Source: a virus. From it: 64,000 nt of DNA. The notes beneath the pieces were generated by a model. It ran no database searches and was not told where the DNA came from. It saw only the letters and a program-made list of their open reading frames with translations. The stretch spans positions 1-64,000 of IMG/VR virus record IMGVR_UViG_3300027977_000031; one strand, 5' to 3'. Position numbers and translations under genes: made by a program. This document shows positions 14,487 through 31,705 of the stretch, piece after piece (position 1 is the first letter of the stretch; each line of letters begins with the position of its first letter).

Positions 14487-14576
14487 GGAACGGTCCCGTA
14501 ATGGTATCGGAGCAGATTGCTAATCTGTCGGCTCACGAAAGTGGGCTTCTGAGTTCGAGTCTCAGTCGTTCCGCCA
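14487..14576 (+). tRNA. tRNA-Ser(GCT), class II
   Basis: Anticodon arm gcaga-ttGCTaa-tctgt; long variable arm; T-arm ctgagttcgagtctcag. Confidence 0.8.
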
Positions 14577-14583
14577 ATATAAT

Positions 14584-14659
14584 GCACCTTTAGCTGATGT
14601 GGTCATAGCGGCGGCCTGAAGAGCCGTGGAAGTTGGTTCAATTCCAACAGGGTGTACCA
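14584..14659 (+). tRNA. tRNA-Phe(GAA) (G37, irregular D-arm)
   Basis: Anticodon arm gcggc-ctGAAga-gccgt; T-arm gttggttcaattccaac. Confidence 0.55.
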
Positions 14660-14956
14660 AGTTTTGTAAGTGTTAGCAAGTGAAGTCACGCTATAAAGGT
14701 TACTTCGAAGGACCAATATAGTAAAAGGTAAGGGGTTCGAATCCCCGGCCCTCGAAAGGGAGTTAGTTCCAAACGGTGGACATGCTGGATGAATCCCAAG
14801 TAACGTACCGAATCCCGCTCGAGCTTGTTAATTCGGGTGAATGGTTCCTATAATGTGGTGGAACAACTTACAAATTCAATATGGAGATATAGTTGATGTC
14901 AGCACAGTGACTGAAATTTTCTGTATCACCACTCAAGAGATATATAAAATACTATT

Positions 14957-15034
14957 CCGCAGAACCCGAGCGTGGTGCATGGGCTGGACTGTTAATCCAT
15001 GGTTAGCTGGGATCGTCACCCAGATGCGGAGCCA
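14957..15034 (+). pseudogene. degenerate tRNA-like gene (possible Asn GTT anticodon; A54 T-loop atcgtca; acceptor mismatch)
   Basis: Acceptor tccgcag/atgcgga (6 of 7 pairs); 4-bp anticodon stem tgga/tcca with loop ctGTTaa; ends gCCA. Confidence 0.3.
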
Positions 15035-15039
15035 AACAA

Positions 15040-15113
15040 GCCCCATTAGTATAATGGCATTATGACGGTTTTGTAATCCGTTGGCGGGAGTTCGATTCTC
15101 TCATGGGGCACCA
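15040..15113 (+). tRNA. tRNA-Thr(TGT)
   Basis: Acceptor gccccat/atggggc; anticodon loop ttTGTaa. Confidence 0.75.
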
Positions 15114-15119
15114 AGTTAT

Positions 15120-15198
15120 CGCGGGGTAGGGGAGTCTAGTCGTCCCCGCCAGTCTCATAAGCTGGAGATCGGAGGTGCGAATCCTCCCCCCGCAACCA
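15120..15198 (+). tRNA. initiator tRNA-fMet(CAT)
   Basis: 5' CGCGGGG ... CCCCGCAACCA 3' with a C1xA72 mismatch as in E. coli tRNAfMet; anticodon loop ctCATaa. Confidence 0.85.
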
Positions 15199-15274
15199 AG
15201 TCATGTCCATGCGTCACTCACTTTGACTGAGTGTTTGCTCTATTAGATTTAGAGAGCCTCTGGACTGTTTCTTT

Positions 15275-15352
15275 ACCGCTTTAGCTCAATTGGATCAGAG
15301 CACTGTGCTACGAACGCAGGGGTTGGGAGTTCGAATCTCTCAGGTGGTGCCA
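15275..15352 (+). tRNA. tRNA-Arg(ACG)
   Basis: Anticodon arm ctgtg-ctACGaa-cgcag; D-arm gctc..gagc. Confidence 0.85.
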
Positions 15353-15357
15353 AATAT

Positions 15358-15432
15358 TGCCGCGTAACTCAGAGGTAGAGTAATCGCTTGATAAGCGATA
15401 AGTCGACATTTCGAAATTGTCCGTGGCAACCA
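15358..15432 (+). tRNA. tRNA-Ile(GAT)
   Basis: Anticodon arm atcgc-ttGATaa-gcgat. Confidence 0.85.
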
Positions 15433-15441
15433 AAAAAACAG

Positions 15442-15470
15442 TTGACAACTACTGTAAAAGGTTGTATAAT
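15442..15470 (+). promoter_or_regulatory. sigma70-like promoter (TTGACA, 17-nt spacer, TATAAT) inside the tRNA array
   Basis: Perfect consensus hexamers with 17-nt spacing. Confidence 0.6.
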
Positions 15471-15580
15471 ATAAACTTAAACACAAAGAGGTAATGACAT
15501 GAAACGTGCAAAACGCTAGTGTCGCTCTAGATCCCGTATTGGTCTAGGGTTGGCACATTAAATCAATTTAATACAACTAA

Positions 15581-15654
15581 CCCTCACAAGCATTAAGGTG
15601 ATGCACTCGGCTCTTAACCGAAAGAACACGGATCATTCCCGTGGTGTGGGACCA
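15581..15654 (+). pseudogene. degenerate tRNA-like gene (anticodon CTT? A8; T-loop atcattc)
   Basis: Acceptor ccctcac/gtgtggg (one mismatch); D-stem gcat/atgc; anticodon loop ctCTTaa; ends aCCA. Confidence 0.3.
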
Positions 15655-15658
15655 ATAT

Positions 15659-15734
15659 GGGATCATAGTTTAACGGTTAAAACATCACCCTTTTAAGGTG
15701 TAAGCTCTCGGTTCGAATCCGAGTGGTCCTACCA
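15659..15734 (+). tRNA. tRNA-Lys(TTT)
   Basis: Anticodon loop ctTTTaa; T-arm ctcggttcgaatccgag. Confidence 0.8.
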
Positions 15735-16391
15735 ATTTTCTAATAACCGATGTTCTAGATTGAGAATGAATTTATATCCAAGTGCGGTATATGCTTCTTT
15801 CTTATCACGCATTTCAGTTTCGTCTAACCAGTAAGTAGATTTAACTTCTACGATAGTGTTAGTTTCGGGTAGATAAAAATCAGGTATTGCTATTCTGTAG
15901 CGTTGCTGATTAGAGTTAAAATATTTTATTCGTAAGTGTTCTACAAAATATTTTGTTTGCGATTGATCGAGGAGTTTGGCATAATCTTCTTCGTATGATG
16001 ATCTTAGACAAAATATTTCTCCAAACCAAGCAGTATGGAAAATATGTTTGAATCTAGTATTACTTGGCATAACAACTCTATTAGTTGTTATTGCATTTGA
16101 TTGACTTTCTGAAAATGATCGTGCCTCGATATCAAACAGTCTAAAAATAATGTCCATAGTTCTTGAACTAGGTATGCTAAATTGTTTCATAAGTGTTAGC
16201 ATAGATTCGCATTTAATATGATATTCAGTATATAGCATAGACTGAATTTTTAAAAATTCAGTCTCGGCACTATTATCATAGTTAAATCCTAGCTTAATCA
16301 AGTTAGGTGATTTGTTTTTATAGAATTGACTTTTAAGAAAGTTTTGTATTATCATATAGTTATTTATCAGATTAAAAATATTTTTAACCAT
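15729..16391 (-). CDS. PD-(D/E)xK-type nuclease, probable homing endonuclease (AT-rich insert in the tRNA array)
   Basis: C-terminal IPDFYLP...IVEVK fits a PD...ExK motif; markedly AT-rich versus flanks; opposite strand inside the tRNA cluster. Confidence 0.4.
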   Translation of the reverse strand: MVKNIFNLINNYMIIQNFLKSQFYKNKSPNLIKLGFNYDNSAETEFLKIQSMLYTEYHIKCESMLTLMKQFSIPSSRTMDIIFRLFDIEARSFSESQSNAITTNRVVMPSNTRFKHIFHTAWFGEIFCLRSSYEEDYAKLLDQSQTKYFVEHLRIKYFNSNQQRYRIAIPDFYLPETNTIVEVKSTYWLDETEMRDKKEAYTALGYKFILNLEHRLLENW

Positions 16392-16714
16392 ATAAAAACA
16401 TATTAGAAGCCTTCGTGACTGTGGGCAAGTAGGTCTCTAAGTCGTTTCCGACTAGTGTGTTTCTATATGGTAAGTCGCATCCGAAAAGAAAACATCCCTT
16501 CGAAAAGGATTGTAGCAGTAAGACAAGATAAGCGGCGAGACTAGATGAGGCAAGGGTTCGGGTCCCAACGTTCATCAATAATTTGCTTAGTAAGGCGCAC
16601 GAAAGGCAAGTTGGCTTGACTCTCCATATAAAAACACATTGGCAATGCGATGTTTACAACCTTGGCAAAAGGAGTCGGCATTTCAAATGCAGAGTGTGTT
16701 TCTATATGGTTTAT

Positions 16715-16790
16715 GGTGTTTGTCGCCAAGTGGTAAGGCCTCGGGTTGTGATTCCGATATGCGTGGGTTCGATCCCCATCAGACACCCCA
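16715..16790 (+). tRNA. tRNA-His(GTG) with G-1
   Basis: Extra 5' G opposite discriminator C; anticodon arm tcggg-ttGTGat-tccga. Confidence 0.85.
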
Positions 16791-16970
16791 AATTAAAGAT
16801 TGTTTATAAAACGCAAAGCTAGATTCACGTTGGTAAAATAACGCATTTGAGCTTGGGCATTAAACACATCGTAAACAATGATGTAGCAAACACCGCGATC
16901 ACTTAGGCTTAGATAGAAATTCAAGCCCTGTGGTGTTAGATTTTGATAGCGTCTCACACAAGTATTTATT

Positions 16971-17045
16971 GGTCATGTGGCGTAGATGGATGCGCACCGC
17001 CCTCATAAGGCGAGGAGGTTGGATCGATACCAACCATGACCACCA
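16971..17045 (+). tRNA. tRNA-Met(CAT) elongator or Ile2-type (third CAT tRNA)
   Basis: Acceptor ggtcatg/catgacc; anticodon loop ctCATaa; T-loop atcgata. Confidence 0.8.
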
Positions 17046-17053
17046 AGAAATTT

Positions 17054-17137
17054 GCCCCGGTGGTGTAATGGCAGCCACGCTGGTCTTAGAAGCCAGTGCC
17101 GAAAGGCGTGTCGGTTCGAGTCCGACCTGGGGCACCA
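17054..17137 (+). tRNA. tRNA-Leu(TAG), class II
   Basis: Anticodon arm ctggt-ctTAGaa-gccag; long variable arm; T-arm gtcggttcgagtccgac. Confidence 0.85.
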
Positions 17138-17218
17138 AGTTGCTAGGCCTATGGCTTGGTCGGCGGGTTTGATTCCTGCACAGTGTATGTGGATATAAAA
17201 ATTTGGTAACATTGATTG

Positions 17219-17247
17219 TTGACTAGTTCAGCAGTCAGTGTTATAAT
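17219..17247 (+). promoter_or_regulatory. sigma70-like promoter (TTGACT, 17-nt spacer, TATAAT)
   Basis: Consensus hexamers with 17-nt spacing, ahead of the 1-kb non-coding stretch. Confidence 0.55.
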
Positions 17248-17739
17248 AAGATTCAAGGGCGGTTTAACGTCCTATAAGCTAGCTTGCTGGTTTATGAAGA
17301 ATAACTGTGGTGACACAGCCAAAGGAGGTATGCCTACATAACTCCGCTAGAGATAGTTCGTTTAAGCAAGCCTGATTCAGGTCCGTGAGGATCCGATCAC
17401 TGATAAGACCGGTGGTTGTAACAATGACGCTGGATGTTGTGGAAAGAATTAGTGGCTCAAGCGCCTGCAAGGGTAACGCAAGTCATTAGAGAGTAACAGG
17501 TGGTGCTGACCTCACAACAAAACCAGTCCAGTTAATTGGTATGAGAAAGGGTAGTGTACGTGTCCGAGAGGTTGCACTCAAGGGCTTGTATGCAGTTTAA
17601 GTGGTTGATGGATGCGTAGCAATATGCAGACATTGGTCGCAAAAAACGTCTGAGTAGTTCGCAAGACAAAAGGAACGTGGTGTGTTGTATTGTGTATTCC
17701 AAAAGAGTATGCAGCAACTGAGTCAGCACATCGCAGTAG

Positions 17740-17811
17740 GTTGTTATAAGCTAATGGTAAGCTAACTCCCTGTTAAGGAGTCGACTGCGGGTTCAACTCC
17801 CGCTAACGATT
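17740..17811 (+). tRNA. tRNA-Asn(GTT) (no encoded CCA)
   Basis: Acceptor gttgtta/taacgat; D-arm agct-aatggta-agct; anticodon arm actcc-ctGTTaa-ggagt; T-arm gcgggttcaactcccgc. Confidence 0.65.
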
Positions 17812-18232
17812 AAAATGCAAAGACTGACTCGGTCGTATGTGAAAAGCATCTAATACTTGAGCCGCAAGGTAATCAAGTCAGACGTAACTCGCAAGGTGAA
17901 ATCTGTTTATGCAGGAAGTTTCGTAACAGTTTAGCGACTGTGAATGGCTCTAAAGGTCAACGGGATAGAAAGCGTAGAATAGCATACGATGTCAAGACTA
18001 ATGCCTGTCTTTAAACGGCGATGTTGGTAACAGACTAGATTACATAGCAATATGGATTTAGTGGAAGTCAGAAGAAGGTAGACTCGCAAGGTTTACTATA
18101 ATGTCTGAGGTGTTACTCGGTAAGGATGTATTCTCAGTCCTCCACTATTCTAAAGCACATTTTGATGCCTATAAGGTTATAAGGTTGATCGCTTATAATA
18201 CGGTGTGTGATGAGTGTGTTTCAGAATAGCCT

Positions 18233-18257
18233 GCCTGGTTAGCTCAGGGGTAGAGAG
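18233..18257 (+). pseudogene. orphan tRNA 5' fragment (acceptor plus D-arm) complementary to the 3' acceptor strand of the tRNA at 18888
   Basis: gcctggt-ta-gctcaggggtagaga; rc of gcctggt matches accaggt at 18953-18959. Confidence 0.4.
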
Positions 18258-18300
18258 TATTTTTGTTCAATCATGCTAAATAGTTGAGCAAGGAAATATT

Positions 18301-18822
18301 ATGTATAAATGCCACTGTGGGAAAGAATTTGAAAATCATCGTGCTAGAAATGCTCATCAAATAGCACACAAAGATAAACCTAGTCGCTACTCAATGAGTA
18401 GGAAAAAAAATCAAAGACTGTATGAGTGTGGGTATTGTAATGCAGAGTTTGAGCACAGTAATAGCACTGAAAATAAGTTTTGTTCAGTTGAATGTTCTGG
18501 AAAATATCAATGGGAGTTTGTCTCAATTCCTAAAATTGAACAAGGACTTGGTGGAAACTATAAGCGATATCTTAAAGAAAAATGCGGAGATAGTTGTGTT
18601 GAATGTGGGCAAGAAAATACCTGGAATAGCAAGCCGCTTGTATTACAATTAGATCACATAGATGGTAACAGCGATAATAATCAATTGAGTAATTTAAGAT
18701 TATTGTGTCCTAATTGTCATACACAAACAGAAACATTTGGCAATGCCGGACAAGGAAGTAGATATAAAAAGAATACGAAAAGAAATTCGTATTTGAGAGA
18801 GTACAAGGCCTCGGTAGTTTAA
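18301..18822 (+). CDS. HNH homing endonuclease
   Basis: DHIDGNSDNNQLSNLRLLCPNCH motif; multiple CxxC; AT-rich insertion. Confidence 0.7.
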   Translation: MYKCHCGKEFENHRARNAHQIAHKDKPSRYSMSRKKNQRLYECGYCNAEFEHSNSTENKFCSVECSGKYQWEFVSIPKIEQGLGGNYKRYLKEKCGDSCVECGQENTWNSKPLVLQLDHIDGNSDNNQLSNLRLLCPNCHTQTETFGNAGQGSRYKKNTKRNSYLREYKASVV

Positions 18823-18881
18823 TGGTAGAACGCCATCCTTACACGGTGGATACGGGAGTTCGATTCTCCAACGAGGTACCA
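18808..18881 (+). tRNA. tRNA-Val(TAC)
   Basis: Anticodon arm ccatc-ctTACac-ggtgg; overlaps the 3' end of the HNH ORF. Confidence 0.7.
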
Positions 18882-18887
18882 AATATT

Positions 18888-18963
18888 GCCAAGATAGCTC
18901 AGTAGGTAGAGCACCGGATTGAAAATCCGGGTGTGGGCGGTTCGATCCCGTCACCAGGTACCA
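18888..18963 (+). tRNA. tRNA-Phe(GAA) with defective 5' acceptor strand (3 mismatches)
   Basis: Anticodon arm ccgga-ttGAAaa-tccgg; T-arm ggcggttcgatcccgtc; 5' gccaaga does not pair with 3' accaggt. Confidence 0.5.
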
Positions 18964-18966
18964 AAT

Positions 18967-19371
18967 AACATGACCAAAGTAATAGTAAACGGAACATTTG
19001 ATATATTGCATCGTGGACATCTAATGATGTTACAACACGCAAAAAGTCTCGGCGATCATCTGTTAGTGGCAATTGATACAGATCGAAGAGTAAAAGAACT
19101 TAAAGGTGAAAATCGGCCTATTAATAATCAAGATGATAGACGATATATGTTAGAAAGTTTAAAATGTGTTAACACTGTTTACTTCTTTGATAGCAAAGAA
19201 CAACTGATAGATATAATGAAAGAATATAAACCAGACATCATGGTCAAAGGCAGTGACTGGCAAGGTAAGAGCGTAGTGGCACAAGAACATGTTAATCAAG
19301 TGATATTTTATGATAGAGTCGGTGAATACTCAACAACAAAAACAATTCAAGATATTGCTAATAGGCGATAA
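18967..19371 (+). CDS. nucleotidyltransferase (cytidylyl/adenylyltransferase, RfaE domain II / HldE C-terminal-like)
   Basis: NGTFDILHRGH (HxGH) motif. Confidence 0.7.
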   Translation, partial: NMTKVIVNGTFDILHRGHLMMLQHAKSLGDHLLVAIDTDRRVKELKGENRPINNQDDRRYMLESLKCVNTVYFFDSKEQLIDIMKEYKPDIMVKGSDWQGKSVVAQEHVNQVIFYDRVGEYSTTKTIQDIANRR

Positions 19372-20071
19372 CTGTACTGATGTGTACCAATATGGTACTA
19401 TTGATAGGTTAAGTCCCGAAGCACCTGTTCCTGTATTTGTTCCTACTCGTACAGAAGAACGTGCTGGCATGGCTGGTAATGTAGCTAACAACTTAAAAGC
19501 ACTGGGTTGCTATGTTGACTACTTGCACGGTGAAACAAGTGTTAAAACTAGACTTATCGACGAGCGTAGTAAACAACAGATTGTTCGTATAGATAGAGAC
19601 GTTCAGTCAACTCCCATTACATTTGATACAGATATCCCCGACATGTACGATGCTATTGTAATCAGTGATTATAATAAAGGAACTGTTAGTTACGAACTAA
19701 TTGAAGAACTTATTGCATTGAGTATTCCTATCTTTATCGATACTAAGAAATCTGACCTTGAGAGATTCCAAGGCGCATGGGTCAAGATCAACGAATTAGA
19801 ACATAGCAAAATTAAAAGTGAATGTTCAGGTCTAATCGTCACACGAGGCAGTCGAGGTGCTAGTGCAATACATCATAGTATAGATGTATCTTCGCACAGT
19901 GTAGAAGTAGTAGATGTAACTGGAGCAGGTGATACCTTTCTAGCAGCGTTAACTTATCAGTACCTTGACACTGGAGACATTGAAAAAGCAATTAAATTTG
20001 CCAACCTGGCGAGTGCGGTTACTGTGCAGCATTCAGGGGTTTATGCTCCAACATTAAAGGAAATAGGATGA
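19310..20071 (+). CDS. PfkB-family carbohydrate kinase (RfaE domain I / heptose-7-P kinase-like)
   Basis: VTGAGDTF ribokinase-family signature. Confidence 0.65.
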   Translation: MIESVNTQQQKQFKILLIGDNCTDVYQYGTIDRLSPEAPVPVFVPTRTEERAGMAGNVANNLKALGCYVDYLHGETSVKTRLIDERSKQQIVRIDRDVQSTPITFDTDIPDMYDAIVISDYNKGTVSYELIEELIALSIPIFIDTKKSDLERFQGAWVKINELEHSKIKSECSGLIVTRGSRGASAIHHSIDVSSHSVEVVDVTGAGDTFLAALTYQYLDTGDIEKAIKFANLASAVTVQHSGVYAPTLKEIG

Positions 20072-20427
20072 CACAATTACAAGGTTATGTAGCAAAGGGA
20101 TGGGGCCACGAACTAATTTGGGCCACTAACGACCTATACTGTGGCAAACTTATGAAGTTTAACAAAGGTGCCAAGTTCAGCATGCATTTTCATGCTATCA
20201 AAGACGAAACATGGTATGTGTTGGACGGATTGTTCACTGTGATCAGTATTGACACTACAAATGCTGATCAAACAACCACAACACTTAAACCAGGCGACAC
20301 TTGGCGCAACAAACCGTTAGCGCCTCATCAGTTGATATGCATCGAAGAAGGCACAGTTATTGAAGTCAGCACAGCAGACAGTGTGGAAGACAACTATCGT
20401 GTGGGCAAAGGCGACAATCAAAAATGA
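20068..20427 (+). CDS. cupin-fold protein (sugar isomerase/epimerase-like)
   Basis: Size and HxH...E-like beta-barrel pattern; sits in the sugar operon; overlapping stops. Confidence 0.3.
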   Translation: MTQLQGYVAKGWGHELIWATNDLYCGKLMKFNKGAKFSMHFHAIKDETWYVLDGLFTVISIDTTNADQTTTTLKPGDTWRNKPLAPHQLICIEEGTVIEVSTADSVEDNYRVGKGDNQK

Positions 20428-21215
20428 ACATACTGTTAACCGGCTATAAAGGTTTTATTGGTAGTCATGTGCTGACAGCACTGGAGGCTGCTGGACACTG
20501 TGTATCAACATACGACTGGGGAGACAGTTTGCCCAGCGTGATGGAACAAGATTGGGTGATTCACCTTGGTGCTATCAGCAGCACTACCGAAAGAGACATA
20601 GACAAAGTAATGCGACAAAATTTTGATTTTAGTCGACAACTATACGATGCTTGTAAAACATATGGCGTTAATTTCCAATACGCAAGCAGTGCAAGTGTTT
20701 ACGGGTTAACCAGTACATTTAGAGAAGACGCTCCGGTTGACCCACGTACTCCTTATGCGTGGAGCAAATACTTGTTTGAACGTTATGTACGCGATCATCC
20801 AAGTGGGAGTGTTGTACAAGGTTTCCGTTATTTTAATGTGTACGGACCTGAAGGCGAAGAACACAAAGGCAATCAAGCTAGTCCGTTTATGCAATTTAAA
20901 CGCCAAGCTGAAACAAACGGCTGTATACAAGTTTTCGAAGGCAGTGAATATTATCTAAGAGACTTTGTTCATGTGTCTAAACTAGTCGACACACACTTGG
21001 ATTTCTTGTATAATACACCTAGTGGCCTATGGAACTTGGGTACTGGAAAGACCATGAGTTTTATGGATGTGGCAAAAAGTTTTAACGTACCTGTTGAAAC
21101 AATCCCCATGCCCGACAATTTAAAAGACTCATATCAAAAGTACACCTGTGCTGATATGAGCAAGTTTAACGCAACGGTGGCAGAGAGGTCCAATGCACGG
21201 GATTGCAAATCCTGA
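20424..21215 (+). CDS. NAD-dependent epimerase/dehydratase (HldD/RfaD-like); the 3' end runs 45 nt into tRNA-Cys
   Basis: Rossmann GYKGFIGS (GxxGxxG); the ORF only terminates inside the tRNA at 21171. Confidence 0.6.
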   Translation: MNILLTGYKGFIGSHVLTALEAAGHCVSTYDWGDSLPSVMEQDWVIHLGAISSTTERDIDKVMRQNFDFSRQLYDACKTYGVNFQYASSASVYGLTSTFREDAPVDPRTPYAWSKYLFERYVRDHPSGSVVQGFRYFNVYGPEGEEHKGNQASPFMQFKRQAETNGCIQVFEGSEYYLRDFVHVSKLVDTHLDFLYNTPSGLWNLGTGKTMSFMDVAKSFNVPVETIPMPDNLKDSYQKYTCADMSKFNATVAERSNARDCKS

Positions 21216-21248
21216 AAACCGGGGGTTCAAATCCCTCCCGTTGCTCCA
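21171..21248 (+). tRNA. tRNA-Cys(GCA)
   Basis: Acceptor gcaacgg/ccgttgc; anticodon arm cggga-ttGCAaa-tcctg; T-arm gggggttcaaatccctc. Confidence 0.85.
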
Positions 21249-21255
21249 GTTAATA

Positions 21256-21330
21256 CTCGGTGAGGTGTTGATGGCGACACACGTGGTTTGGGACCATGAA
21301 TGGCAGATTCGAGCTCTGCCACCGAGACCA
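21256..21330 (+). tRNA. tRNA-Pro(TGG)
   Basis: Acceptor ctcggtg/caccgag; anticodon arm cgtgg-ttTGGga-ccatg. Confidence 0.7.
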
Positions 21331-21336
21331 AACAAT

Positions 21337-21420
21337 GCGACTGTGGCGTAATTGGTAGCCGCAAGGGACTTAAAATCCCTCGAGTTTCTCGTACCGGTTC
21401 GAGTCCGGTCAGTCGCACCA
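21337..21420 (+). tRNA. tRNA-Leu(TAA), class II
   Basis: Acceptor gcgactg/cagtcgc; anticodon arm aggga-ctTAAaa-tccct. Confidence 0.85.
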
Positions 21421-21434
21421 TTTTGTTTCGAGCG

Positions 21435-21463
21435 TACGGGTTCGAATCCCGTCTCTCGTACCA
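21435..21463 (+). pseudogene. tRNA 3' fragment (T-arm plus acceptor 3' strand plus CCA) with no 5' half
   Basis: acgggttcgaatcccgt-ctctcgt-a-cca only 15 nt after the previous tRNA. Confidence 0.35.
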
Positions 21464-21526
21464 ATATCAAAGTAAATTTACAGAGGATACCAAAGTAAAT
21501 TTATCTGGCGTTCATTCATTAAATTT

Positions 21527-21601
21527 GCGGCTATAGTATAACGGATAATACAGCGGTCTTCTACACCGTGAATGTGGGTTCGATTCCTGCTAGCCGCACC
21601 A
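21527..21601 (+). tRNA. tRNA-Arg(TCT)
   Basis: Acceptor gcggcta/tagccgc; anticodon arm gcggt-ctTCTac-accgt. Confidence 0.85.
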
Positions 21602-21607
21602 GACAAT

Positions 21608-21699
21608 GCCAGCGAGACTGGGTAGTCAGAGAGGTCTTATAAGTCTTTTAGCGCCAGATTAGCGTTCTTGAGAGAGTTCGAGTCTCTCCGCTGGTACCA
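21608..21699 (+). tRNA. class II tRNA (long variable arm), anticodon unresolved (best fold gives TAT)
   Basis: Acceptor gccagcg/cgctggt; T-arm gagagttcgagtctctc; 92 nt; anticodon stem has multiple wobbles. Confidence 0.45.
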
Positions 21700-21706
21700 A
21701 AAATAT

Positions 21707-21783
21707 GCATCGTTAGTTCCAATTGGCAGAACGTTGGTCTCCAAAACCAAATGTTGTACGTTCGAATCGTACACGGTGCGCCA
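21707..21783 (+). tRNA. tRNA-Trp(CCA)
   Basis: Anticodon arm ttggt-ctCCAaa-accaa; D-arm gttc..gaac. Confidence 0.85.
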
Positions 21784-21800
21784 ATCAAAGAAAGTGAATC

Positions 21801-22283
21801 ATGAAAAAAATGGACATGACCGAGGTCAAAGAATTTATCACTGCTCAAAGTCCAGAAACTGCGGTCTATCTGGGTTGCGACAGCGAACGAGTAAAGGTCA
21901 ATGGCGTATGGTACGCAGACTATGCTCTGGCAGTGGTTGTACACATTGATAGCTGCCATGGTTGCAAAATCTTTGGTGAAGTACAACGTGAACGTGACTG
22001 GGATCAACGCAGCGACAAACCTGCCATGCGACTCATGAACGAAGTATACAAAGTTTCCGAACTGTTCCAAAAGATGAGTGATGTACTTGAAGACCGTCTT
22101 GTGGAAGTACACTTGGACATCAATCCAGATCAGATGCACAAAAGTTCTGTGGTGGTAAACCAAGCAATTGGTTACATCAAAGGCACTTGCAATGTGATTC
22201 CAATGGTCAAGCCCCGGGCCTTTGCTGCTAGCTATGCAGCAGATAGGATGGATTGGGTGTTGAGCAATCGTCGAGCAGCTTAA
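21801..22283 (+). CDS. hypothetical protein
   Basis: ORF with RBS right after the tRNA cluster. Confidence 0.45.
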   Translation: MKKMDMTEVKEFITAQSPETAVYLGCDSERVKVNGVWYADYALAVVVHIDSCHGCKIFGEVQRERDWDQRSDKPAMRLMNEVYKVSELFQKMSDVLEDRLVEVHLDINPDQMHKSSVVVNQAIGYIKGTCNVIPMVKPRAFAASYAADRMDWVLSNRRAA

Positions 22284-22292
22284 CCAAAACAG

Positions 22293-22321
22293 TTGATTTA
22301 CATCGCTGTTTTGTATATAAT
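22293..22321 (+). promoter_or_regulatory. sigma70-like promoter (TTGATT, 17-nt spacer, TATAAT)
   Basis: Near-consensus hexamers; about 270-nt ORF-free leader before the gene at 22589. Confidence 0.4.
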
Positions 22322-22588
22322 TGTTTTTGTCAACGCGAGTTGACTGGCAAGAACCAAGTAGATTAGCACAGACAAACGTTGGCTTCATGCCAACACCAGC
22401 CTGAACAGCTGAACAAAATTGGCCTCCAAGGAAACTTGGATCGTGCTTGTGTGAACCGGACTTATTATAGACATTTGCACTTTGATAACCGGACATACGC
22501 AGGCCACTGTGGTTTGTACTTTGCATGTTGCATATTGCACCTTGCTTAGTCTGTGACTTGACTTGGGTCTTGCCGCCCTTATTGTTTA

Positions 22589-23173
22589 ATGAAAGAAATT
22601 ATGAAAATCAATCTACGCAAAGCTAACGCATTGCAACTGTCTATCCAGGATGCAATCAAAAGTATTAAATTTGACACTGAAGTCAAAATCAACGAATTCC
22701 AAGTTGCCGAAGATGTAATCGCCAACTATCGTCAGGATTTTGCTATCAAGCAAGACCGCCATCGTGGGCTGCTAAACAGTCTGTATGATATCCGTAAGGC
22801 TGTGAGCCAGGCTAACAGTGCCCAGGGTGTTGATATCAAATTGGCTGATGTGGCCCTGCTGGACAAAAAGATTCAGTATCTTGCCGAATTGGCTGGTAAA
22901 AGTACACGTGATAGCATGGAGGTTGTTGCCGGTAAGATAGAAAAAATTCGTAATCGCAAGGAAGACGCTCGTAGTTTGTATTACGGACATGATGTCACTG
23001 TGGATACTTCTATCTTCACAGCGGAAGACATTGCTGGATTCCGTACAGCAGTGAGTATGGGCAAGAAAGCCAAACAAAAATTGCAAGATGAATTGTTGGA
23101 AATCAACGTTCGCACTGAAATCGAACTCAGTGCAGATGTGGTCACTGTGTTGACTGCGGAAGGTCTGTTGTAG
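22589..23173 (+). CDS. hypothetical protein
   Basis: ORF. Confidence 0.45.
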   Translation: MKEIMKINLRKANALQLSIQDAIKSIKFDTEVKINEFQVAEDVIANYRQDFAIKQDRHRGLLNSLYDIRKAVSQANSAQGVDIKLADVALLDKKIQYLAELAGKSTRDSMEVVAGKIEKIRNRKEDARSLYYGHDVTVDTSIFTAEDIAGFRTAVSMGKKAKQKLQDELLEINVRTEIELSADVVTVLTAEGLL

Positions 23174-23444
23174 GACCAAGCCTGTAAAGGATGTTCATTG
23201 CCCGAGTTCTCAATCTATTAGAGAATTCAGCTTCGGACAGCACACCCTTTGCTAGATTACACTTACGACAAGTCACTTGTAGATTGTCGTAAGTGGTTGC
23301 TCCACCTCGAGATTCAGGTATAACATGATCCATATGGATCTCAGCATCTGTGAGATCTTCATCACAGTACACACAATACACGCCATCGCGTTCAATGATC
23401 CTGCGTCGTAGATTTAATGGTATATGTTGTTTTGTTCGTAGCAC
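23142..23444 (-). CDS. HNH endonuclease (small)
   Basis: HMDHVIPESRGG...NLQVTCRKCN motif. Confidence 0.65.
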   Translation of the reverse strand: MLRTKQHIPLNLRRRIIERDGVYCVYCDEDLTDAEIHMDHVIPESRGGATTYDNLQVTCRKCNLAKGVLSEAEFSNRLRTRAMNILYRLGPTTDLPQSTQ

Positions 23445-23504
23445 AAGAATATTTATTAGTTGGTACTAAATCAATTTAAATATATAATAGAGCTAATATT
23501 TAAA

Positions 23505-24197
23505 ATGAAATTGATTTTTTGTTTCCCAGGGCAATCATTCAGTAAAAATTGGATGGCCGCATGGAATGACACTATTCGTTGGCTTTATAAAAACAATATA
23601 GAATACATAACCATAAATGCATATTCGCCGGTAATTTACAACTGTCGAAACATGTTGTTGGGTGCCACTGGCAATCCTCCCAGGACTTTCCAGCCATTCA
23701 ACGGCACAATAGATTACGATTGGATCATCTGGATCGACAACGATAATATCTGGACACCTGCTGATCTTGCACAATTGATCAGCAACCCCGAACACAAGAT
23801 TGTCACTGGACTTTATATACAGCATGACAATAAAACTTATGCACAGGCTGTGATTCATGGTGATAGCAAAACCAACCTGTTGTGGTTACCACGAGAGCTA
23901 GTACAAATCAACGGAAGTAGATTCCAAGTGGCCGCAACAGGTATGGGTTTTATGGCTGTGCAAAAAGGTGTATTTGAATCCATGGAATGCCCATTCTTCC
24001 GACCCGTCGAATACAAAGTTGATGATGATACAACTGCATTTTTATCAGAGGATACAGGGTTCTGTCACAGAGCTATAAATGCAGGATATAATGTATGGGC
24101 AGATCCACAGATTCAGGTCCAACATGAGAAGGCATGGTTGTTGTCCGGCAACAGTGAACACGGGGTTCGACCTGAGAATATTGTGTTAAATAGATAA
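23505..24197 (+). CDS. hypothetical protein, possible glycosyltransferase
   Basis: DxD-like IWIDNDN; ATGA overlap with the downstream radical SAM gene. Confidence 0.3.
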   Translation: MKLIFCFPGQSFSKNWMAAWNDTIRWLYKNNIEYITINAYSPVIYNCRNMLLGATGNPPRTFQPFNGTIDYDWIIWIDNDNIWTPADLAQLISNPEHKIVTGLYIQHDNKTYAQAVIHGDSKTNLLWLPRELVQINGSRFQVAATGMGFMAVQKGVFESMECPFFRPVEYKVDDDTTAFLSEDTGFCHRAINAGYNVWADPQIQVQHEKAWLLSGNSEHGVRPENIVLNR

Positions 24198-25240
24198 TGC
24201 AACCACCCAAATTCTTGTTCTTAGATATCAACCTACAATGCAATCTCAAATGCAAGACCTGCATGTATTGGACCAGAGAAGAAGTTGTATTACCCACACA
24301 CATATCTATAGAACAACGCAGTGATATCATCACGGAATTCAGTTCCTTAAATCCGTATGGTGCCGTGGTAATCTGTGGCGGCGAAGCCTTGATGAATCCC
24401 GAAAGATATTGGCCTATAACCACTCAATGTCGTGAGTTAGGATTAAAATGTTTGAGTGTGATGAATGGCACCATGGTCACAGATCTGGCGTTTGCCAAGA
24501 AATTGATCACACAAGGTCCTAGTGAAATAACAATTTCGCTAAACAGTTACATTCCAGAAGTACATGATTCAACTCGCGGAGTCACAGGATCATTTGATAT
24601 GGCAGTGAATGCTATTCGGTTGTTGTTGCAGGCAAGAAAAGAATTAAACAGCAACACCCCCATCTATGCCATGTCGGTCATGTGCGAACAGAACTATCGA
24701 GACCTGGATCAGTTTTACCACTTTGTGTTGAATGATCTCGGAGCAGATAAGTTAAAATTGAATTGGTTGCAGCCAACATTTGGCACATTGTTAGACAAGA
24801 ATGGCGATCCAAGACCAGACAAATTTTACGACAACAATGTGATCCGCGATCATGAAGCATTGTTTGAGATCATGAATCATTGTTCAGAAAAATATCAGTT
24901 GAATCTAGATCCTGAATATATAGAAACTGTACGTCGATATCATCGCAGTGTGTTTAAAAATGCAGATGCTGTGACAGGATGGGACGGACACGGTACTGAA
25001 GATGCCATATGCAATAGTTTTGATCGCAACATCATGGTCAACATGGATGGTATTGCCCGTTTGTGTTTTTCTGATCAGTTTCCCAGTTTCAAGATTAGCA
25101 GTCCTGGTGATCTCACACGATTATGGAACAGTGCCGAACCAATAAGAAATCTCATGAGACCTTGTAGACAATATTGCGGAATCAGTCACAGTGTGAGAAG
25201 AGTCAATGCTGTGAAGAAGATTGACATCAATTTGGTTTGA
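24197..25240 (+). CDS. radical SAM enzyme
   Basis: CNLKCKTC = CxxxCxxC near the N-terminus; CGGEA glycine-rich motif. Confidence 0.65.
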   Translation: MQPPKFLFLDINLQCNLKCKTCMYWTREEVVLPTHISIEQRSDIITEFSSLNPYGAVVICGGEALMNPERYWPITTQCRELGLKCLSVMNGTMVTDLAFAKKLITQGPSEITISLNSYIPEVHDSTRGVTGSFDMAVNAIRLLLQARKELNSNTPIYAMSVMCEQNYRDLDQFYHFVLNDLGADKLKLNWLQPTFGTLLDKNGDPRPDKFYDNNVIRDHEALFEIMNHCSEKYQLNLDPEYIETVRRYHRSVFKNADAVTGWDGHGTEDAICNSFDRNIMVNMDGIARLCFSDQFPSFKISSPGDLTRLWNSAEPIRNLMRPCRQYCGISHSVRRVNAVKKIDINLV

Positions 25241-25259
25241 ATATATAATAACAACATAA

Positions 25260-25334
25260 GCGGGCATGGTGCTAGTGGTAACACATAACTTTGCCAAAGT
25301 TAAATTGCGGGTTCGATTCCCGCTGTCCGCTCCA
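25260..25334 (+). tRNA. tRNA-Gly(GCC)
   Basis: Acceptor gcgggca/tgtccgc; anticodon arm taact-ttGCCaa-agtta; T-arm gcgggttcgattcccgc. Confidence 0.85.
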
Positions 25335-25475
25335 GAGCAGAAGATAGATTACGTTATTGGTATGAGTTACAAGGTACCGCGGTAAATCCTTGAGCAAGCA
25401 ATGGTACAAACACAACGTAATAGGCAGTAGTGATCTACTCATCGGGACCGGCCTCAAAACGAATCCCACCAATTT

Positions 25476-25567
25476 GGAGAGTAATGCAGCGGGGATGGTC
25501 CTGCGACTGGCCTTGAAAACCAGGTTCTCAGAAATGGGATGGGGTTCGACTCCTCTGCTCTCCGCCA
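25476..25567 (+). tRNA. tRNA-Ser(TGA), class II
   Basis: Acceptor ggagagt/gctctcc; anticodon loop ctTGAaa; 92 nt. Confidence 0.6.
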
Positions 25568-25663
25568 GATAACACGGCCCTGCCCTCTGTGTAACTGCCA
25601 CTCCCAGAAGTTGTTATATACGGCAGGGTTCTTCTTCAGGGCCGAGCGTTCAACGGATAGATT

Positions 25664-25741
25664 GCGACTGTATGCCGCTTGGCTTCGAACCAAGAGAAAG
25701 CTAAAGGATTCATGCAGGTTCGAGTCCTGCCAGTCGCTCCA
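25664..25741 (+). pseudogene. aberrant tRNA-like gene (same acceptor as Leu-TAA; perfect hairpin cttgg-cttcgaa-ccaag in place of a D-arm)
   Basis: Acceptor gcgactg/cagtcgc; T-arm gcaggttcgagtcctgc; CCA encoded; internal arms non-canonical. Confidence 0.35.
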
Positions 25742-26640
25742 TAAAATTTCATGTTTGATTCATGATATACCGCAGTGGAAAATCTCTACCGTACATTTTC
25801 CATAGTGTTGAATAGTATTCGTAGGACCTGTCATGAGAATATAACATTCTTTGTACGTTCATTGTGGTTGGAAATCCAGGATATTCTAACAATAGTGGAA
25901 TATTGTAAACTGTATCACATAATCCATTGAATAATGTATTTTCAATAGTTGCATAATAAAACATTGTGGAGCCGTCATTATAGGGTATTCTAAAATCATA
26001 ATTTAAAGCATCTATCCAATGTCGATCTAATATTTTTTTAATGTATTCACGTTTGAACAGTCCGGCACCACCAAAATCGTCCCATTCTTTTTTTCGTAGT
26101 TGCAGTGATGGTATTTCAAATTTGATAGCATTGTTAATCAATCCAACATGCCAATTATTAATACGTACTAAGTGTACAGCTTCCCAATCAGTGGGCAAGT
26201 TATCTACAAACTCTTGCCAGGTAAAACTCCAATGGTCAATAGATTCAAAACTCATGTCGTCATCACAAAATATCACATGTTCTTCATTGGTTGTATCATA
26301 CCAATTTTTCATTGCAGTCAAATAACTAATAATCGTACCTGGATGGCTGAATCCTTGAAATGTTTCAGCATCCTCTTTGACAACTTCTGGCCACAAAATA
26401 TTAACTTTATGTTGAAATGTAGTATATCTGTGATTCAAACATGGCATGTAACGTATACTATATCTAGTCAATTGAGCATTCATAAACTCCATTCGATCTA
26501 TGTTCTCGTATAGTGTGATATAATTCACTGTGGGAAAGTTTGTTAGTTTGGCCATAGTGTATATATATTTTACTGACACATGGAAAGGTAAAAACAGAGG
26601 AAACGGAAGAGCAGCAAGAGGTCTTCCACTAAATTAATTT

Positions 26641-26715
26641 GCTGATATAACACAGAGGTAGTGTGCTTTCTTGGTATGAAAGAGGTCGTAGGTTCAAATC
26701 CTGCTATCAGCACCA
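26641..26715 (+). tRNA. tRNA-Thr(GGT)
   Basis: Acceptor gctgata/tatcagc; anticodon arm ctttc-ttGGTat-gaaag. Confidence 0.85.
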
Positions 26716-26722: not shown

Positions 26723-26751
26723 TTGACAGCATGTAGAAATAAATATATACT
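26723..26751 (+). promoter_or_regulatory. sigma70-like promoter (TTGACA, 17-nt spacer, TATACT) driving the tmRNA
   Basis: Consensus hexamers immediately upstream of the tmRNA acceptor piece. Confidence 0.55.
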
Positions 26752-26786
26752 GTAAGTTAAGACTGTATGAAGGAAAAAGAACAATT

Positions 26787-27065
26787 GACTGGACGCGGGG
26801 GGCGGTGCCCCGCCCGGTCCACCATAAGAGCATACGGTGTTTTTATGATGGGCCGGTCTTAGATTCGACAGTCGGTGCAGTATTTGACTGGACAGTCCGG
26901 CAATGTAGAAGCCGTTAGGATTGGGGTAACCCGGTCGTAGACACAAAAAACCTAAATGCAAACGATGCATACTTTGGAGAAGAACGCCTAGCAGCGTGAC
27001 CTCCACGAGGTAGTTATACCTTGTAACCAAAAATAACAGAGGCCCGCTTCGGCGGGCTTTCTTTT
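26787..27065 (+). ncRNA. ssrA: circularly permuted (two-piece) tmRNA, ssrA; tag peptide (A)NDAYFGEERLAA
   Basis: Acceptor piece GGAC-gcgggg-ggcggtg-ccccgc-ccggtcc-A-CCA parallels the E. coli tmRNA 3' end GGACGCGGGTTCAACTCCCGCCAGCTCCACCA. The downstream coding piece starts gggccgg-tcttaGATTCGACagtcgg (compare E. coli GGGGCTGATTCTGGATTCGACGGG), carries gca aac gat gca tac ttt gga gaa gaa cgc cta gca gcg tga, and ends in an intrinsic terminator. Confidence 0.6.
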
Positions 27066-27068
27066 GAC
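27042..27068 (+). terminator. rho-independent terminator (3' end of the tmRNA coding piece)
   Basis: gcccgc-ttcg-gcgggc followed by TTTCTTTTG. Confidence 0.75.
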
Positions 27069-27158
27069 TGTTATTTCTCAATCACTATATACTAGCATAG
27101 GCACACAAACAGAATACTTCGAACGCATTGGATATCACCAAATTGAAACAGTTCTGAC

Positions 27159-27217: not shown

Positions 27218-27451
27218 ATGGCAAGACTCACTAGTCAAGATGCAGTAGCAATGATTGGTAACCGTTACGATTTGGTACTGATTGCAGCTCGTCGAGCACG
27301 AGAACTGGCACGTGGTGACATGCCCAAAGTAACCAACGTGACTAGTCATGCAGTCACAGCTCTACGTGAAATTGAACAAGGTTTTGTGAATCGTAGCTGG
27401 TTGTATAAACCTCAAGACATTGCAAGCAAAAGCCATCACAGGAAATATTGA
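27218..27451 (+). CDS. RNA polymerase omega subunit (RpoZ)-like protein
   Basis: MARLTSQDAVAMIGNRYDLVLIAARRAREL matches E. coli RpoZ [30 protein letters not shown]; also ...ALREIEQG. Confidence 0.55.
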   Translation: MARLTSQDAVAMIGNRYDLVLIAARRARELARGDMPKVTNVTSHAVTALREIEQGFVNRSWLYKPQDIASKSHHRKY

Positions 27452-29628: not shown

Positions 29629-30558
29629 ATGAAAAAACTTTTATTAAGTATTTTTTTGACTCTTTCTATGACTTCTTTGTATGCATGGGAGCCCAAAAAA
29701 GAAATTACTATTGTTGTTGGATTCCCAGTTGGCGGTACCGTTGACAACCTAGCACGAATCATGGCCGAGAGCTTTACGCTTCAAGGATATTCTACAATAG
29801 TAGTTAATCAACCCGGTGCTGTTGGAGCAATTGCCGCAAATCGCGTTGCTACCTCTCGCCCAGACGGATACACACTGATGCTAACTGCTACCGCTAACCT
29901 GTATAGTAAGCTTCTACAACAACCAGGTGCAACTTATGATATACTTGAGGATTTTAGTCATCTAAGAACAATCGGCACCGTAGAAAACCGTATCTATGCC
30001 AATCCTACCAAGGTTCCTGGGGATATGAGACAAGTTATCAATGACATTCTCAGTGGTCGCAGAAACTACACATGGGGATCACCATTTGCAGGTGGTGAAT
30101 TTGTAATCAGGCTAATTGAAGATCAAATCAGACAACCTATCACTCATGTTTCTTACAACGGTACAGTACCGTTAATACCGGACTTGGTTGAGGGTAGAAT
30201 TGACTTGGTTGTTGACTCAGGAGTTTCACCACTGAATCGATTTGTTGAGTCTGGCAAACTAAAAGTATTAGCAACAACTAATACTAAAACTGCCAATCAA
30301 ATTACTGTTGATCAATATCTACCGGGAATTGTTACACATAGTTGGTATGGGGTTAGTCTGCCAGCTAACGCACCAGATGATATGATAAAATTTTACAATG
30401 ATCTTATTGTTAAAAGTATAAACCGCCCTATTACTAAAGAAAAATTATTGAATTTAGGATTGCAATTACCAGATCAAAACTCAACTTTACTGGTATCATT
30501 GATAAAAAGAGACTTGATAAGATTTCGGCCTCTTGTCAATCGTATAAGCAACAAATAA
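29629..30558 (+). CDS. TctC/Bug-family periplasmic tricarboxylate-binding protein homolog
   Basis: Signal peptide; VVNQPGAVGAIAANRVATSRPDGYTL resembles the TctC motif vvnrpGagGnig...kpDGyTl; about 310 aa. Confidence 0.5.
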   Translation: MKKLLLSIFLTLSMTSLYAWEPKKEITIVVGFPVGGTVDNLARIMAESFTLQGYSTIVVNQPGAVGAIAANRVATSRPDGYTLMLTATANLYSKLLQQPGATYDILEDFSHLRTIGTVENRIYANPTKVPGDMRQVINDILSGRRNYTWGSPFAGGEFVIRLIEDQIRQPITHVSYNGTVPLIPDLVEGRIDLVVDSGVSPLNRFVESGKLKVLATTNTKTANQITVDQYLPGIVTHSWYGVSLPANAPDDMIKFYNDLIVKSINRPITKEKLLNLGLQLPDQNSTLLVSLIKRDLIRFRPLVNRISNK

Positions 30559-30562: not shown

Positions 30563-31705
30563 ATGACTGATCGATATCAATTTGGGTTTTACAAAGTTGG
30601 CTCTGAAATTTTTACACACAAGGCTTCGGCCTTGGTCCGGGCCACACAATTAGGAGTTACACCAACTTGGCATTTTCATAACGAAATATACTCTAAATTA
30701 AATTGGCAAGACGATGTTCCATTCAGTCTTGACTATTTTTATCAACAGCGAGCCCGCCAACTCAGAAACAAATACGAATACCTAATACTGAGTTTTAGTG
30801 GGGGTAGTGATAGTTGGACTGTGTTAAAAGCATTTATTGATAGTAATACTCATATTGACGAGATTTTTATAAGATGGCCAATCGAAGCAACTTATAAAAA
30901 ATACAATACAGGCACTAGCGATCACCCATCGAATGTTATCAACGAATGGGAACTAACAATCCTACCAATGATTAACAAATATAAAGAACTATTACCAAAC
31001 ACTAAATTTGAAATCCAAGACTGGAGTGATCAAATTTTAAACGCAGAGCTAACAGACAACGATTGGTTCTATGCCCAAGACCATCTTAATCCCGGTGTAT
31101 ATTTTAAAGTTAATGCAATTGGAAAAAGTGAGCTAGACGCAATAAATGCCGGCAAGAATACAGCTATCATCTTTGGCATTGATAAGCCGCAGGTTTGGTA
31201 TGACAATGGTAAAGTTTTTTGCTATTTTTTAGATAAGTTGGCAAACACCAATCCACAAAATTCATTCAAGAGAACCTGTGAATTATTTTATTGGACTCCT
31301 GATATGCCTGAGTTAGTATTGGCTCAATCTAGAGAAATTTTTCGCTATCTACAAGCCAATCCAGATGCATTGAAATTAATCAATCGAAACATTCCGTTTA
31401 CACAACAACGCAAACAAACCTGGGACACTCTGGTTCGTTATATCATTTACAATGACTATACAAAGTTATCTGCTTTTCAAACAAAAAAAGCCTCGAGTTG
31501 TATCTACGACGAAGCAGATACGTGGATGTGGGATATAAAATCATCTGATTTCAAATATTTAAAAAGCTGGGAGTACGGGGTAAAAAATGTATTAAAAAGT
31601 ATTAACGAATGCTACATCCAAAGAATCAATGGTCAACCTATAGGGTTTACAGGATTTGTTGACGGAATGTATTGTTTAGGCTCTATAGATACAGAGGTTG
31701 ACTAG
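30563..31705 (+). CDS. PP-loop ATP pyrophosphatase superfamily protein (QueC/TilS/ExsB-like)
   Basis: SFSGGSDSW (SGGxDS) motif. Confidence 0.5.
   Translation: MTDRYQFGFYKVGSEIFTHKASALVRATQLGVTPTWHFHNEIYSKLNWQDDVPFSLDYFYQQRARQLRNKYEYLILSFSGGSDSWTVLKAFIDSNTHIDEIFIRWPIEATYKKYNTGTSDHPSNVINEWELTILPMINKYKELLPNTKFEIQDWSDQILNAELTDNDWFYAQDHLNPGVYFKVNAIGKSELDAINAGKNTAIIFGIDKPQVWYDNGKVFCYFLDKLANTNPQNSFKRTCELFYWTPDMPELVLAQSREIFRYLQANPDALKLINRNIPFTQQRKQTWDTLVRYIIYNDYTKLSAFQTKKASSCIYDEADTWMWDIKSSDFKYLKSWEYGVKNVLKSINECYIQRINGQPIGFTGFVDGMYCLGSIDTEVD

Follow-up and report, generated by a model that had tools for sequence, protein, structure and literature searches.

The window analysed here, a stretch of 64,000 nucleotides (nt) of viral DNA (positions 1 to 64,000 of the IMG/VR record IMGVR_UViG_3300027977_000031), carries a real and intact circularly permuted two-piece ssrA gene, encoding a transfer-messenger RNA (tmRNA), at positions 26723-27065 of the plus strand. 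All the features of the gene described below lie on this strand, in the following order: a sigma-70-type promoter, an acceptor piece with CCA, a 25-nt intervening segment, a coding piece with the tag, a 3' pseudoknot and an intrinsic terminator.

Identification of a permuted tmRNA gene

The gene matched two Rfam covariance models over their full length: tmRNA_permuted (RF04321; 94.1 bits against a gathering score of 47, E 6e-17, model positions 1-213 of 213) and beta_tmRNA (RF01850; 91.7 bits against a gathering score of 84, E 2e-26, model positions 1-331 of 331). The permuted order was evident from the sequence, since the T-arm, the acceptor 3' strand and CCA (26822-26824) precede the acceptor 5' strand (26850-26856) and the tag (26958-26999). 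The identity elements were all present: G3:U70, A73, CCA, GGAC and the T-arm, the UUCGAC D-loop analogue, the UAAAU-GCA resume context, and an AND...LAA tag. The minimum free energy (MFE) fold of the 310-nt precursor (26757-27066; z = -4.94) recovered the helices of the models: the T-arm, the acceptor stem, both parts of P2, two hairpins and the terminator. The full-length matches and the elements found in place confirm the original prediction, made from the letters of the DNA alone, of a permuted two-piece tmRNA; it had named the absence of any covariance-model match and of conserved pairing between the two pieces as evidence to the contrary, and both the matches and a covarying pairing were found.

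The acceptor piece is about 67 nt long (26758-26824, its 5' end being placed from the promoter position) and includes the P2b 5' strand GACUGU (26761-26766), the P2a 5' strand AUUGACU (26784-26790), GGAC, which precedes the T-arm, the T-arm itself (GCGGGG-GGCGGUG-CCCCGC, 26795-26813), the acceptor 3' strand CCGGUCC (26814-26820), the discriminator A73 (26821) and the encoded CCA (26822-26824). The start of the coding piece (26850-26897) includes the acceptor 5' strand GGGCCGG (26850-26856, with G3 at 26852), the D-loop analogue UCUUAGAUUCGAC (26857-26869), the P2a 3' strand AGUCGGU (26870-26876) and the P2b 3' strand ACAGUC (26892-26897). GGGCCGG pairs with CCGGUCC across 7 base pairs (bp), the third of which is the G3:U70 wobble. 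A G:U third pair is an identity element for alanyl-tRNA synthetase in tmRNA and tRNA-Ala.

Relatives were collected by two IMG/VR pattern scans built on the T-arm, which gave 19 viral loci (loci carry L numbers below) and 15 distinct complete permuted tmRNA genes, scoring 76-125 bits in Rfam. Covariation was analysed in an alignment of 14 viral homologues with the spacer removed, using slid partners and 500 shuffles as controls: 87.8% of the cells were paired compared to at most 46.6% in the slid controls, and none of the 500 shuffles reached the observed value. In these 14 sequences, pairing was complete (100%) in the acceptor stem that joins the pieces; three of its pairs changed on both sides and G3:U70 stayed invariant. 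Both-side changes were found in 7 of 7 pairs of P2a and in 5 of 6 pairs of P2b. The predicted pairing of GGGCCGG with CCGGUCC between the two pieces, across the 25-nt spacer, was borne out as a covarying helix of 7 bp.

Tag frame, tandem hairpins and 3' pseudoknot

The tag frame extends from the resume codon GCA (26958-26960) to TGA (26997-26999), in the tag region as aligned by both Rfam models; its codons are GCA AAC GAU GCA UAC UUU GGA GAA GAA CGC CUA GCA GCG UGA, and the in-frame tag that had been predicted is indeed encoded there, ANDAYFGEERLAA followed by the stop. Of 97 distinct viral tags, ANDAFYGEDRLAA and ANDAFYGEMRLAA resemble that of the window most; an LAA ending is found in 76 of the 97, and the commonest lengths are 13-14 residues. 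The tag of the window is typical of the viral set, and the gene is a typical member of it.

Two tandem hairpins, both in the MFE fold, occupy the usual site of pseudoknot 1 (26898-26936): the first, P3, is CGGC-AAUGUAGAA-GCCG (26898-26914), and the second is GAUUGGG-GUAA-CCCGGUC, with a GNRA loop (26919-26936). In eight sequences sharing the body of the gene, 100% of the cells of these hairpins were paired (at most 50% in slid controls), with two pairs changing on both sides and three showing compatible one-sided changes. Downstream of the tag, an H-type pseudoknot is predicted at 27005-27037: stem 1 pairs ACGAGGU (27005-27011) with ACCUUGU (27018-27024), and stem 2 pairs GUUAU (27013-27017) with AUAAC (27033-27037). 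Its score in the window, 11.5, was reached by none of 60 shuffles; stem 2 covaries in relatives (UUGACUA/UAGUCAG, GCUAU/AUAGU, GGUAGGUU/AACCUACC, GCCAAC/GUUGGC, CCACGU/ACGUGG), and the loop agrees with the beta_tmRNA consensus CCUUGuuACcaAA.

Promoter, terminator and intervening segment

The sigma-70-type promoter (26723-26751) matches the consensus in 11 of 12 positions (-35 TTGACA at 26723-26728, 17-nt spacer, -10 TATACT at 26746-26751). It is the best of eight sites in the region, with 4.6 expected from shuffles. The same two hexamers, with differing spacers, were found upstream of the tmRNA in five relatives (L001, L005, L009, L274 and L281), and the 5' end of the Rfam beta_tmRNA model, itself promoter-like, aligns with this stretch. 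Acting as a promoter, this element would start transcription near 26758. The intrinsic terminator (27039-27065), recognised in the sequence and in the MFE fold, has a 9-bp stem with the core GCCCGC-UUCG-GCGGGC, followed by UUUCUUUU. The promoter hexamers and the terminator are kept in relatives and the surrounding sequence varies. The predicted promoter and terminator of the gene itself are thus present as promoter-like (TTGACA-17-TATACT) and terminator-like (hairpin and U-tract) signals. The U-tract of the terminator (region 27058-27093) runs directly into the -35 element of the next promoter-like site, TTGACT-18-TATACT (TTGACT at 27064), a junction retained in L276, L278 and L281, even where the tmRNA is absent.

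The intervening segment (26825-26849) is exactly 25 nt long, UAAGAGCAUACGGUGUUUUUAUGAU; in the MFE fold it forms a predicted stem extending the acceptor helix, and it aligns to the spacer of the beta_tmRNA consensus. By analogy with the two-piece tmRNA of Caulobacter, it would be excised by processing. The relatives have spacers of between 4 and 264 nt, with a median of 79, apart from a single spacer of 359 nt, so that 25 nt is an ordinary length among viral genes. The 359-nt segment (L019, about 1215-1573) contains an open reading frame (ORF) of 106 residues with a CxxC...LCANCH motif, HNH endonuclease-like; on this reading, a sequence resembling a homing endonuclease gene would be inserted in the portion of a permuted tmRNA gene that is excised. 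A Pfam scan of this ORF and of the small ORFs upstream of the tmRNA gave no matches.

Alpha-type and beta-type features

Judged by its sequence, the gene is a mosaic, with a T-loop and D-loop of alphaproteobacterial type (and an extra T-stem pair) combined with a promoter, spacer and 3' pseudoknot loop following the betaproteobacterial consensus. Rfam ranks beta_tmRNA above alpha_tmRNA, both for the whole gene and for the tRNA-like domain alone, because the leader, the short spacer, the 3' pseudoknot loop and the terminator follow the beta consensus.

The betaproteobacterial lineage of two-piece tmRNAs was reportedly described by Sharkady and Williams in 2004. The window gene shares with the beta model (RF01850) the gene order, the helix set and a full-length match above the gathering score; its promoter-like leader, short intervening segment (AAG.GCAU...GU.UU..GAUGGG), 3' pseudoknot loop CCUUGUAACCAAA and terminator hairpin all align to the consensus. 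It differs in the core, where the consensus has the T-loop UUCGAU and the D-loop CUGGUUUCGAC and the window has GGCGGUG and UUAGAUUCGAC (UAG for UGG), and also in its T-stem of six pairs, in a 31-nt insert in the hairpin after P2, in its tag of 13 residues (about 10 in the consensus) and in being carried by a phage. With the alpha two-piece tmRNA (RF01849, Caulobacter crescentus type) it shares the type of T-loop, GGCgGUA, and the D-loop GAAAuAGGAUCGAC; the alpha RNA is processed into two pieces, a form that the RNA of the window would also take. The 13-residue tag ending in RLAA is like many alpha-type viral tags. The alpha consensus differs in having a T-stem of 5 bp, without the extra pair of the window, and the 3' loop motif AACAGAA, which is replaced in the window by ACCAAAAA.

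The combination of a GGCRGUK T-loop with a UAG D-loop was considered as a new variant and dropped, because the alpha_tmRNA consensus has exactly this pair (GGCgGUA, AuAGGAUCGAC). The remaining unusual feature is the one extra G:C pair of the T-stem, G26800:C26808, which makes a 6-bp arm, the rarer version, found at the 19 viral loci. Among 185,579 representative genomes, the 6-bp arm occurred only in one-piece tmRNAs (Clostridia/Bacillota, Melainabacteria, Caenarcanales and Saccharibacteria, metagenome-assembled), and in no permuted bacterial gene.

Across viral tmRNAs, covariation links nucleotide 2 of the T-loop to the first purine in the D-loop analogue (window positions 26800-26808 and 26857-26863; loci L001-L273 and L274-L283). 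Among the matches listed, the D-loop has GG in 39 of 39 distinct viral cores with a UUCNANU T-loop. AG accompanies the GGCNGUN T-loop, in 65 of 65 viral cores whose arm is the alpha-like one of 5 bp and in 16 of 18 whose arm has 6 bp; the UGCRAAU T-loop (L274-L276) likewise goes with AG. This association points to a coherent tertiary contact in which, in tRNA numbering, G18-Psi55 would be replaced by A18-G55.

Permuted tmRNA genes in other phages

The gene belongs to a known kind, and phage copies are common in viral metagenomes. IMG/VR pattern scans gave a total of at least 165 complete permuted genes on viral contigs: the 15 relatives described above, at least 33 among 120 listed viral loci with a canonical T-arm, and at least 117 among 120 listed viral loci with an alpha-like arm. 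Published cases include the two-piece tmRNA of phage Melnitz and 53 two-piece forms among 133 unique phage tmRNAs counted with ARAGORN (Buchholz et al. 2022, PMC9004378); the genes listed for huge phages include tmRNA and SmpB (Al-Shayeb et al. 2020, PMC7162821), and the 2025 tmRNA database, the source of the RF04321 model, holds 79 phage sequences (PMC11915505). The expectation that a phage-borne permuted ssrA would be rare was consequently not upheld. Surveys of phage tmRNAs built with ARAGORN undercount such genes, because this program misses them, and for annotation it matters that it misses the window gene together with several relatives.

Like the published two-piece tmRNAs of the OM43 phage Melnitz and the pelagimyophages (PMC9004378) and the tmRNAs of huge phages (PMC7162821), the window gene is a complete permuted ssrA in a large, lytic-type phage genome of an aquatic metagenome lineage, with a transcription-related gene adjoining. 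It differs in escaping ARAGORN, the tool of those surveys, and in that Rfam found no glutamine riboswitch at the window. The one-piece tmRNAs of the mycobacteriophage Bxz1 group and of Bacillus phage G (PMC4131195) are likewise phage-encoded ribosome-rescue RNAs beside many tRNA genes, but have the standard, unpermuted gene order. No recognisable relative of the gene was found in INPHARED by blastn, the only matches being to tRNA-Thr or, over 36 nt, to the tRNA-like domain of a roseophage ssrA.

Genomic context and host

The DNA of the window is that of a phage: it encodes a virion structural protein of 1634 residues with distant kin in the jumbo phages PA5oct, Atu_ph07, Phosso and SCTP-2. No close deposited phage was found in INPHARED, and the window matches the contig Ga0247840_10000454 (84.9 kb) of the JGI lake metagenome 3300028581. 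The tmRNA promoter begins 8 nt after the end of a tRNA-Thr gene, and no integrase was seen near the tmRNA gene. Directly 3' of the tmRNA lies a gene for a homologue of the omega subunit of RNA polymerase (27218-27451, plus strand; 77 residues; Pfam RNA_pol_Rpb6, E 1.3e-12). This rpoZ-like protein has 630 metagenomic homologues; the best 120 of the 630 are 81-92% identical and lie on contigs of up to 348 kb, so this is evidently an abundant phage lineage. No genuine INPHARED phage record encodes an omega subunit and no paper on a phage-encoded one was found; the phage-borne omega subunit may be worth investigating separately.

The window has at least 29 tRNA genes: ARAGORN called 29, for all 20 amino acids, in a tRNA arm at 7678-26715 (plus strand); Rfam alone gave extra tRNA matches at 18888-18960 and 25664-25738, and tRNA-Ile(tat) (21608-21699) is unusually long, at 92 nt. 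The same arm carries two RNA-ligase genes matching Rnl1-like and Rnl2-like PHROGs (3556-4584 and 10734-11636, plus strand), which together with the tRNAs suggest a module for RNA repair and the maintenance of translation. A full-length GOLLD RNA (Rfam RF02032, 200.8 bits) lies within the tRNA cluster at 17677-18140 (plus strand), with tRNA-Asn (17739-17812) nested in its variable region. The window also encodes several radical SAM proteins. Five tandem ORFs of 419-456 residues (45023-51608, minus strand), two of which match radical SAM PHROGs, adjoin a Nol-like carbamoyltransferase gene (42417-43895); these genes may together make up a cluster for modification or biosynthesis.

A TctC (Bug-family) tricarboxylate-binding protein is encoded at 29629-30558 (plus strand), and a TctA homologue lies near the tmRNA in a sister phage (L276, 1-458). 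The closest comparisons of the TctC homologue, with genes of Cupriavidus, Comamonas and rhizobial plasmids, show an identity of only about 30%; the rpoZ-like protein is 53% identical to enterobacterial RpoZ; and the relatives of the structural protein belong to jumbo phages infecting Alpha- and Gammaproteobacteria. Taken from these sequence likenesses, a proteobacterial host is suggested, and nothing more precise.

Sister phages and exchange of the tRNA-like core

Synteny with the first relatives (L001-L032) is nearly nil, a single neighbour (the 380-residue ORF at 30563-31705) being matched in L009. Synteny was found only in the sister phages reached through the rpoZ-like protein, whose contigs reach 330-348 kb and where the tmRNA lies upstream of that protein in seven loci and is absent there in three. 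The sister genes (L274-L283, compared with window positions 26761-27062) share the body of the window gene almost base for base (CGGCAAUGUAGAAGCCGUUAGG...), and their tRNA-like cores vary (UGCGAAU or UGCAAAU loops, or GGCAGUG on a 5-bp stem), as do their tags (ANDSQFALAA, ANDELFALAA, ANDSQYLVAANA). Three further loci with the canonical UUCGACU loop (L057, L135 and L147) share the body too, and have the tags closest to that of the window, ANDAFYGEDRLAA and ANDAFYGEMRLAA. The core of the window gene is identical to that of L008, which has a different body. Three versions of the core block are found among near-identical bodies: UUCGACU with GG; UGCRAAU with AG; and GGCRGUN with AG, on a 5-bp or 6-bp stem.

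Which clade model scores best in Rfam depends on the core: the UUCGACU-loop genes and L274 are best matched by beta (85-119 bits), the GGCNGUN-loop genes by alpha (64-84 bits). The suggestion in the original prediction that the permuted form hints at the host lineage did not hold, as alpha and beta features are mixed and sister phages flip the best model; because parts are shuffled between phages, the alpha or beta label says little on the host. Phage Melnitz carries a tmRNA whose type is mismatched to its host (PMC9004378).

The permuted order brings the T-arm, the two acceptor strands, the spacer and the D-loop together in an unbroken block of about 100 nt, and we infer that one recombination tract could exchange the whole core, since its parts are contiguous. 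It is conceivable, although we regard it as rather unlikely, that the tmRNA genes of this abundant jumbo-phage lineage evolve by cassette swapping, and that the permuted order may be favoured since it makes the surface contacted by alanyl-tRNA synthetase, SmpB and EF-Tu exchangeable in one event. If this were true, cassette exchange could match the RNA to a new host or evade a host factor targeting tmRNA.

Two relatives, L017 and L020 (IMG/VR 3300013094_000036 and 3300013093_004893), have the acceptor 3' strand CCGCUCC and the 5' strand GGGGGUG, mismatched at 2 of 7 positions; ARAGORN calls this gene, which, from its sequence, looks like a chimera of two tmRNA genes. The tag ANDSQYLVAANA of L275-L277 has its ...AA-stop ending shifted, and its product would be without the terminal AA degron.

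Discussion

We consider it very probable, from the features of its sequence, that the window holds a functional permuted ssrA gene borne by an uncultivated phage of jumbo type. The host sigma-70 RNA polymerase would produce a single precursor of about 308 nt (about 26758 to about 27065), in which the two tRNA-like halves would pair across the 25-nt intervening segment. RNase P would then cut 5' of G26850, and 3' trimming would halt at the encoded CCA (26824), leaving two RNAs, an acceptor piece (about 67 nt) and a coding piece (about 215 nt), held together by the 7-bp acceptor stem and the long P2 helix. Two-piece processing of this standard type is known from Caulobacter (Keiler et al. 2000, as cited in PMC9004378), and there is precedent for phage tmRNAs (PMC9004378, PMC7162821, PMC4131195). 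The alanyl-tRNA synthetase of the host would charge the RNA by way of G3:U70 and the discriminator A73, and together with SmpB, supplied by the host or encoded by the phage beyond the window, the RNA would enter stalled ribosomes, where translation would resume at GCA 26958 and add ANDAYFGEERLAA. The LAA ending should direct the product to proteases of the ClpXP type. The likely benefit to the phage would be that ribosomes are kept free during infection, in keeping with the roughly 30 tRNA genes and the two genes for RNA ligases in the neighbourhood.

Several observations weigh against this interpretation. The beta_tmRNA score exceeds its cut-off by just 7.7 bits. ARAGORN, run on the whole window, reported 29 tRNAs and no tmRNA; of the two kinds of check that had been proposed, the Rfam models, tmRNA_permuted and beta_tmRNA, thus gave scores above their cut-offs and ARAGORN made no call. 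Since this program likewise misses 6 of the 15 close permuted relatives and all six tested one-piece tmRNAs with the same T-arm, we take its negative result to be a failure of the detector. The proposed check by folding also gave a divided answer: the acceptor-stem pairing and a predicted 3' pseudoknot were recovered, and the upstream pseudoknot 1 was not, the loop of the first of the two tandem hairpins at its site having no complementary partner upstream of the tag. The T-arm is atypical: its stem has 6 bp and its loop is GGCGGUG, where a 5-bp stem and a UUCRANY loop are usual, and the stem is invariant among the relatives because the collecting pattern fixed it. No SmpB was found in the 64 kb, the part of the genome that is visible, by tblastn with an approximate E. 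coli SmpB query (best E = 0.88). Finally, some relatives look damaged (the acceptor mismatch of L017 and L020; the tag ending in ANA of L275-L277), and not every phage copy is necessarily functional.

Two other explanations of the locus have to be considered. The RNA might act chiefly as a manipulator of the host, with its core tuned to its partner: titrating host SmpB, re-routing tagging for the selective degradation of host or phage proteins, or standing in for a host tmRNA inactivated by a defence system or by the phage. The variation of the tRNA-like core among sister phages with the same gene body would suit such a role, as would the extra T-stem pair and the diversity of phage tags, some of which are very long or without the AA ending; a precedent exists in the RNA of phage DS6A, which consists only of a tRNA-like domain and inhibits tmRNA (PMC4131195, PMC11915505), and selective tagging has been proposed by Buchholz et al. 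(PMC9004378). The window gene, however, keeps every element of ordinary trans-translation, including a standard AND...LAA tag, and nothing in its sequence requires a special role, so we regard this explanation as unlikely. Far less probable still is a decaying or inert copy, in which an ssrA gene acquired from a host through recombination, or through the imprecise excision of a prophage, has lost its function. Integration often takes place at tmRNA genes, pieces of which are found in prophages (PMC4383910, PMC9004378), a few of the relatives look damaged, and a complete tmRNA gene was found in 56 of the 120 listed viral loci with a canonical T-arm, the rest of which could equally be truncations at contig ends. 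Against this, the window gene has kept its two pieces, tag frame, promoter and terminator intact, it stands amid phage genes, and sister phages have it in the same position, upstream of the rpoZ-like gene; the compensatory changes by which its helices are kept across relatives, together with this conservation in sister phages, make a dead relic very improbable.

The preferred reading, a functional phage-borne tmRNA gene of ordinary type, opens no new question, and its main value lies in the annotation of such genes and in the example it gives of shuffling among phage tmRNA genes. The alpha or beta type of a phage tmRNA should not serve as a marker of the host. The locus adds a well-supported case of large phages with their own kit for maintaining translation, here about 30 tRNAs, RNA ligases and a tmRNA.

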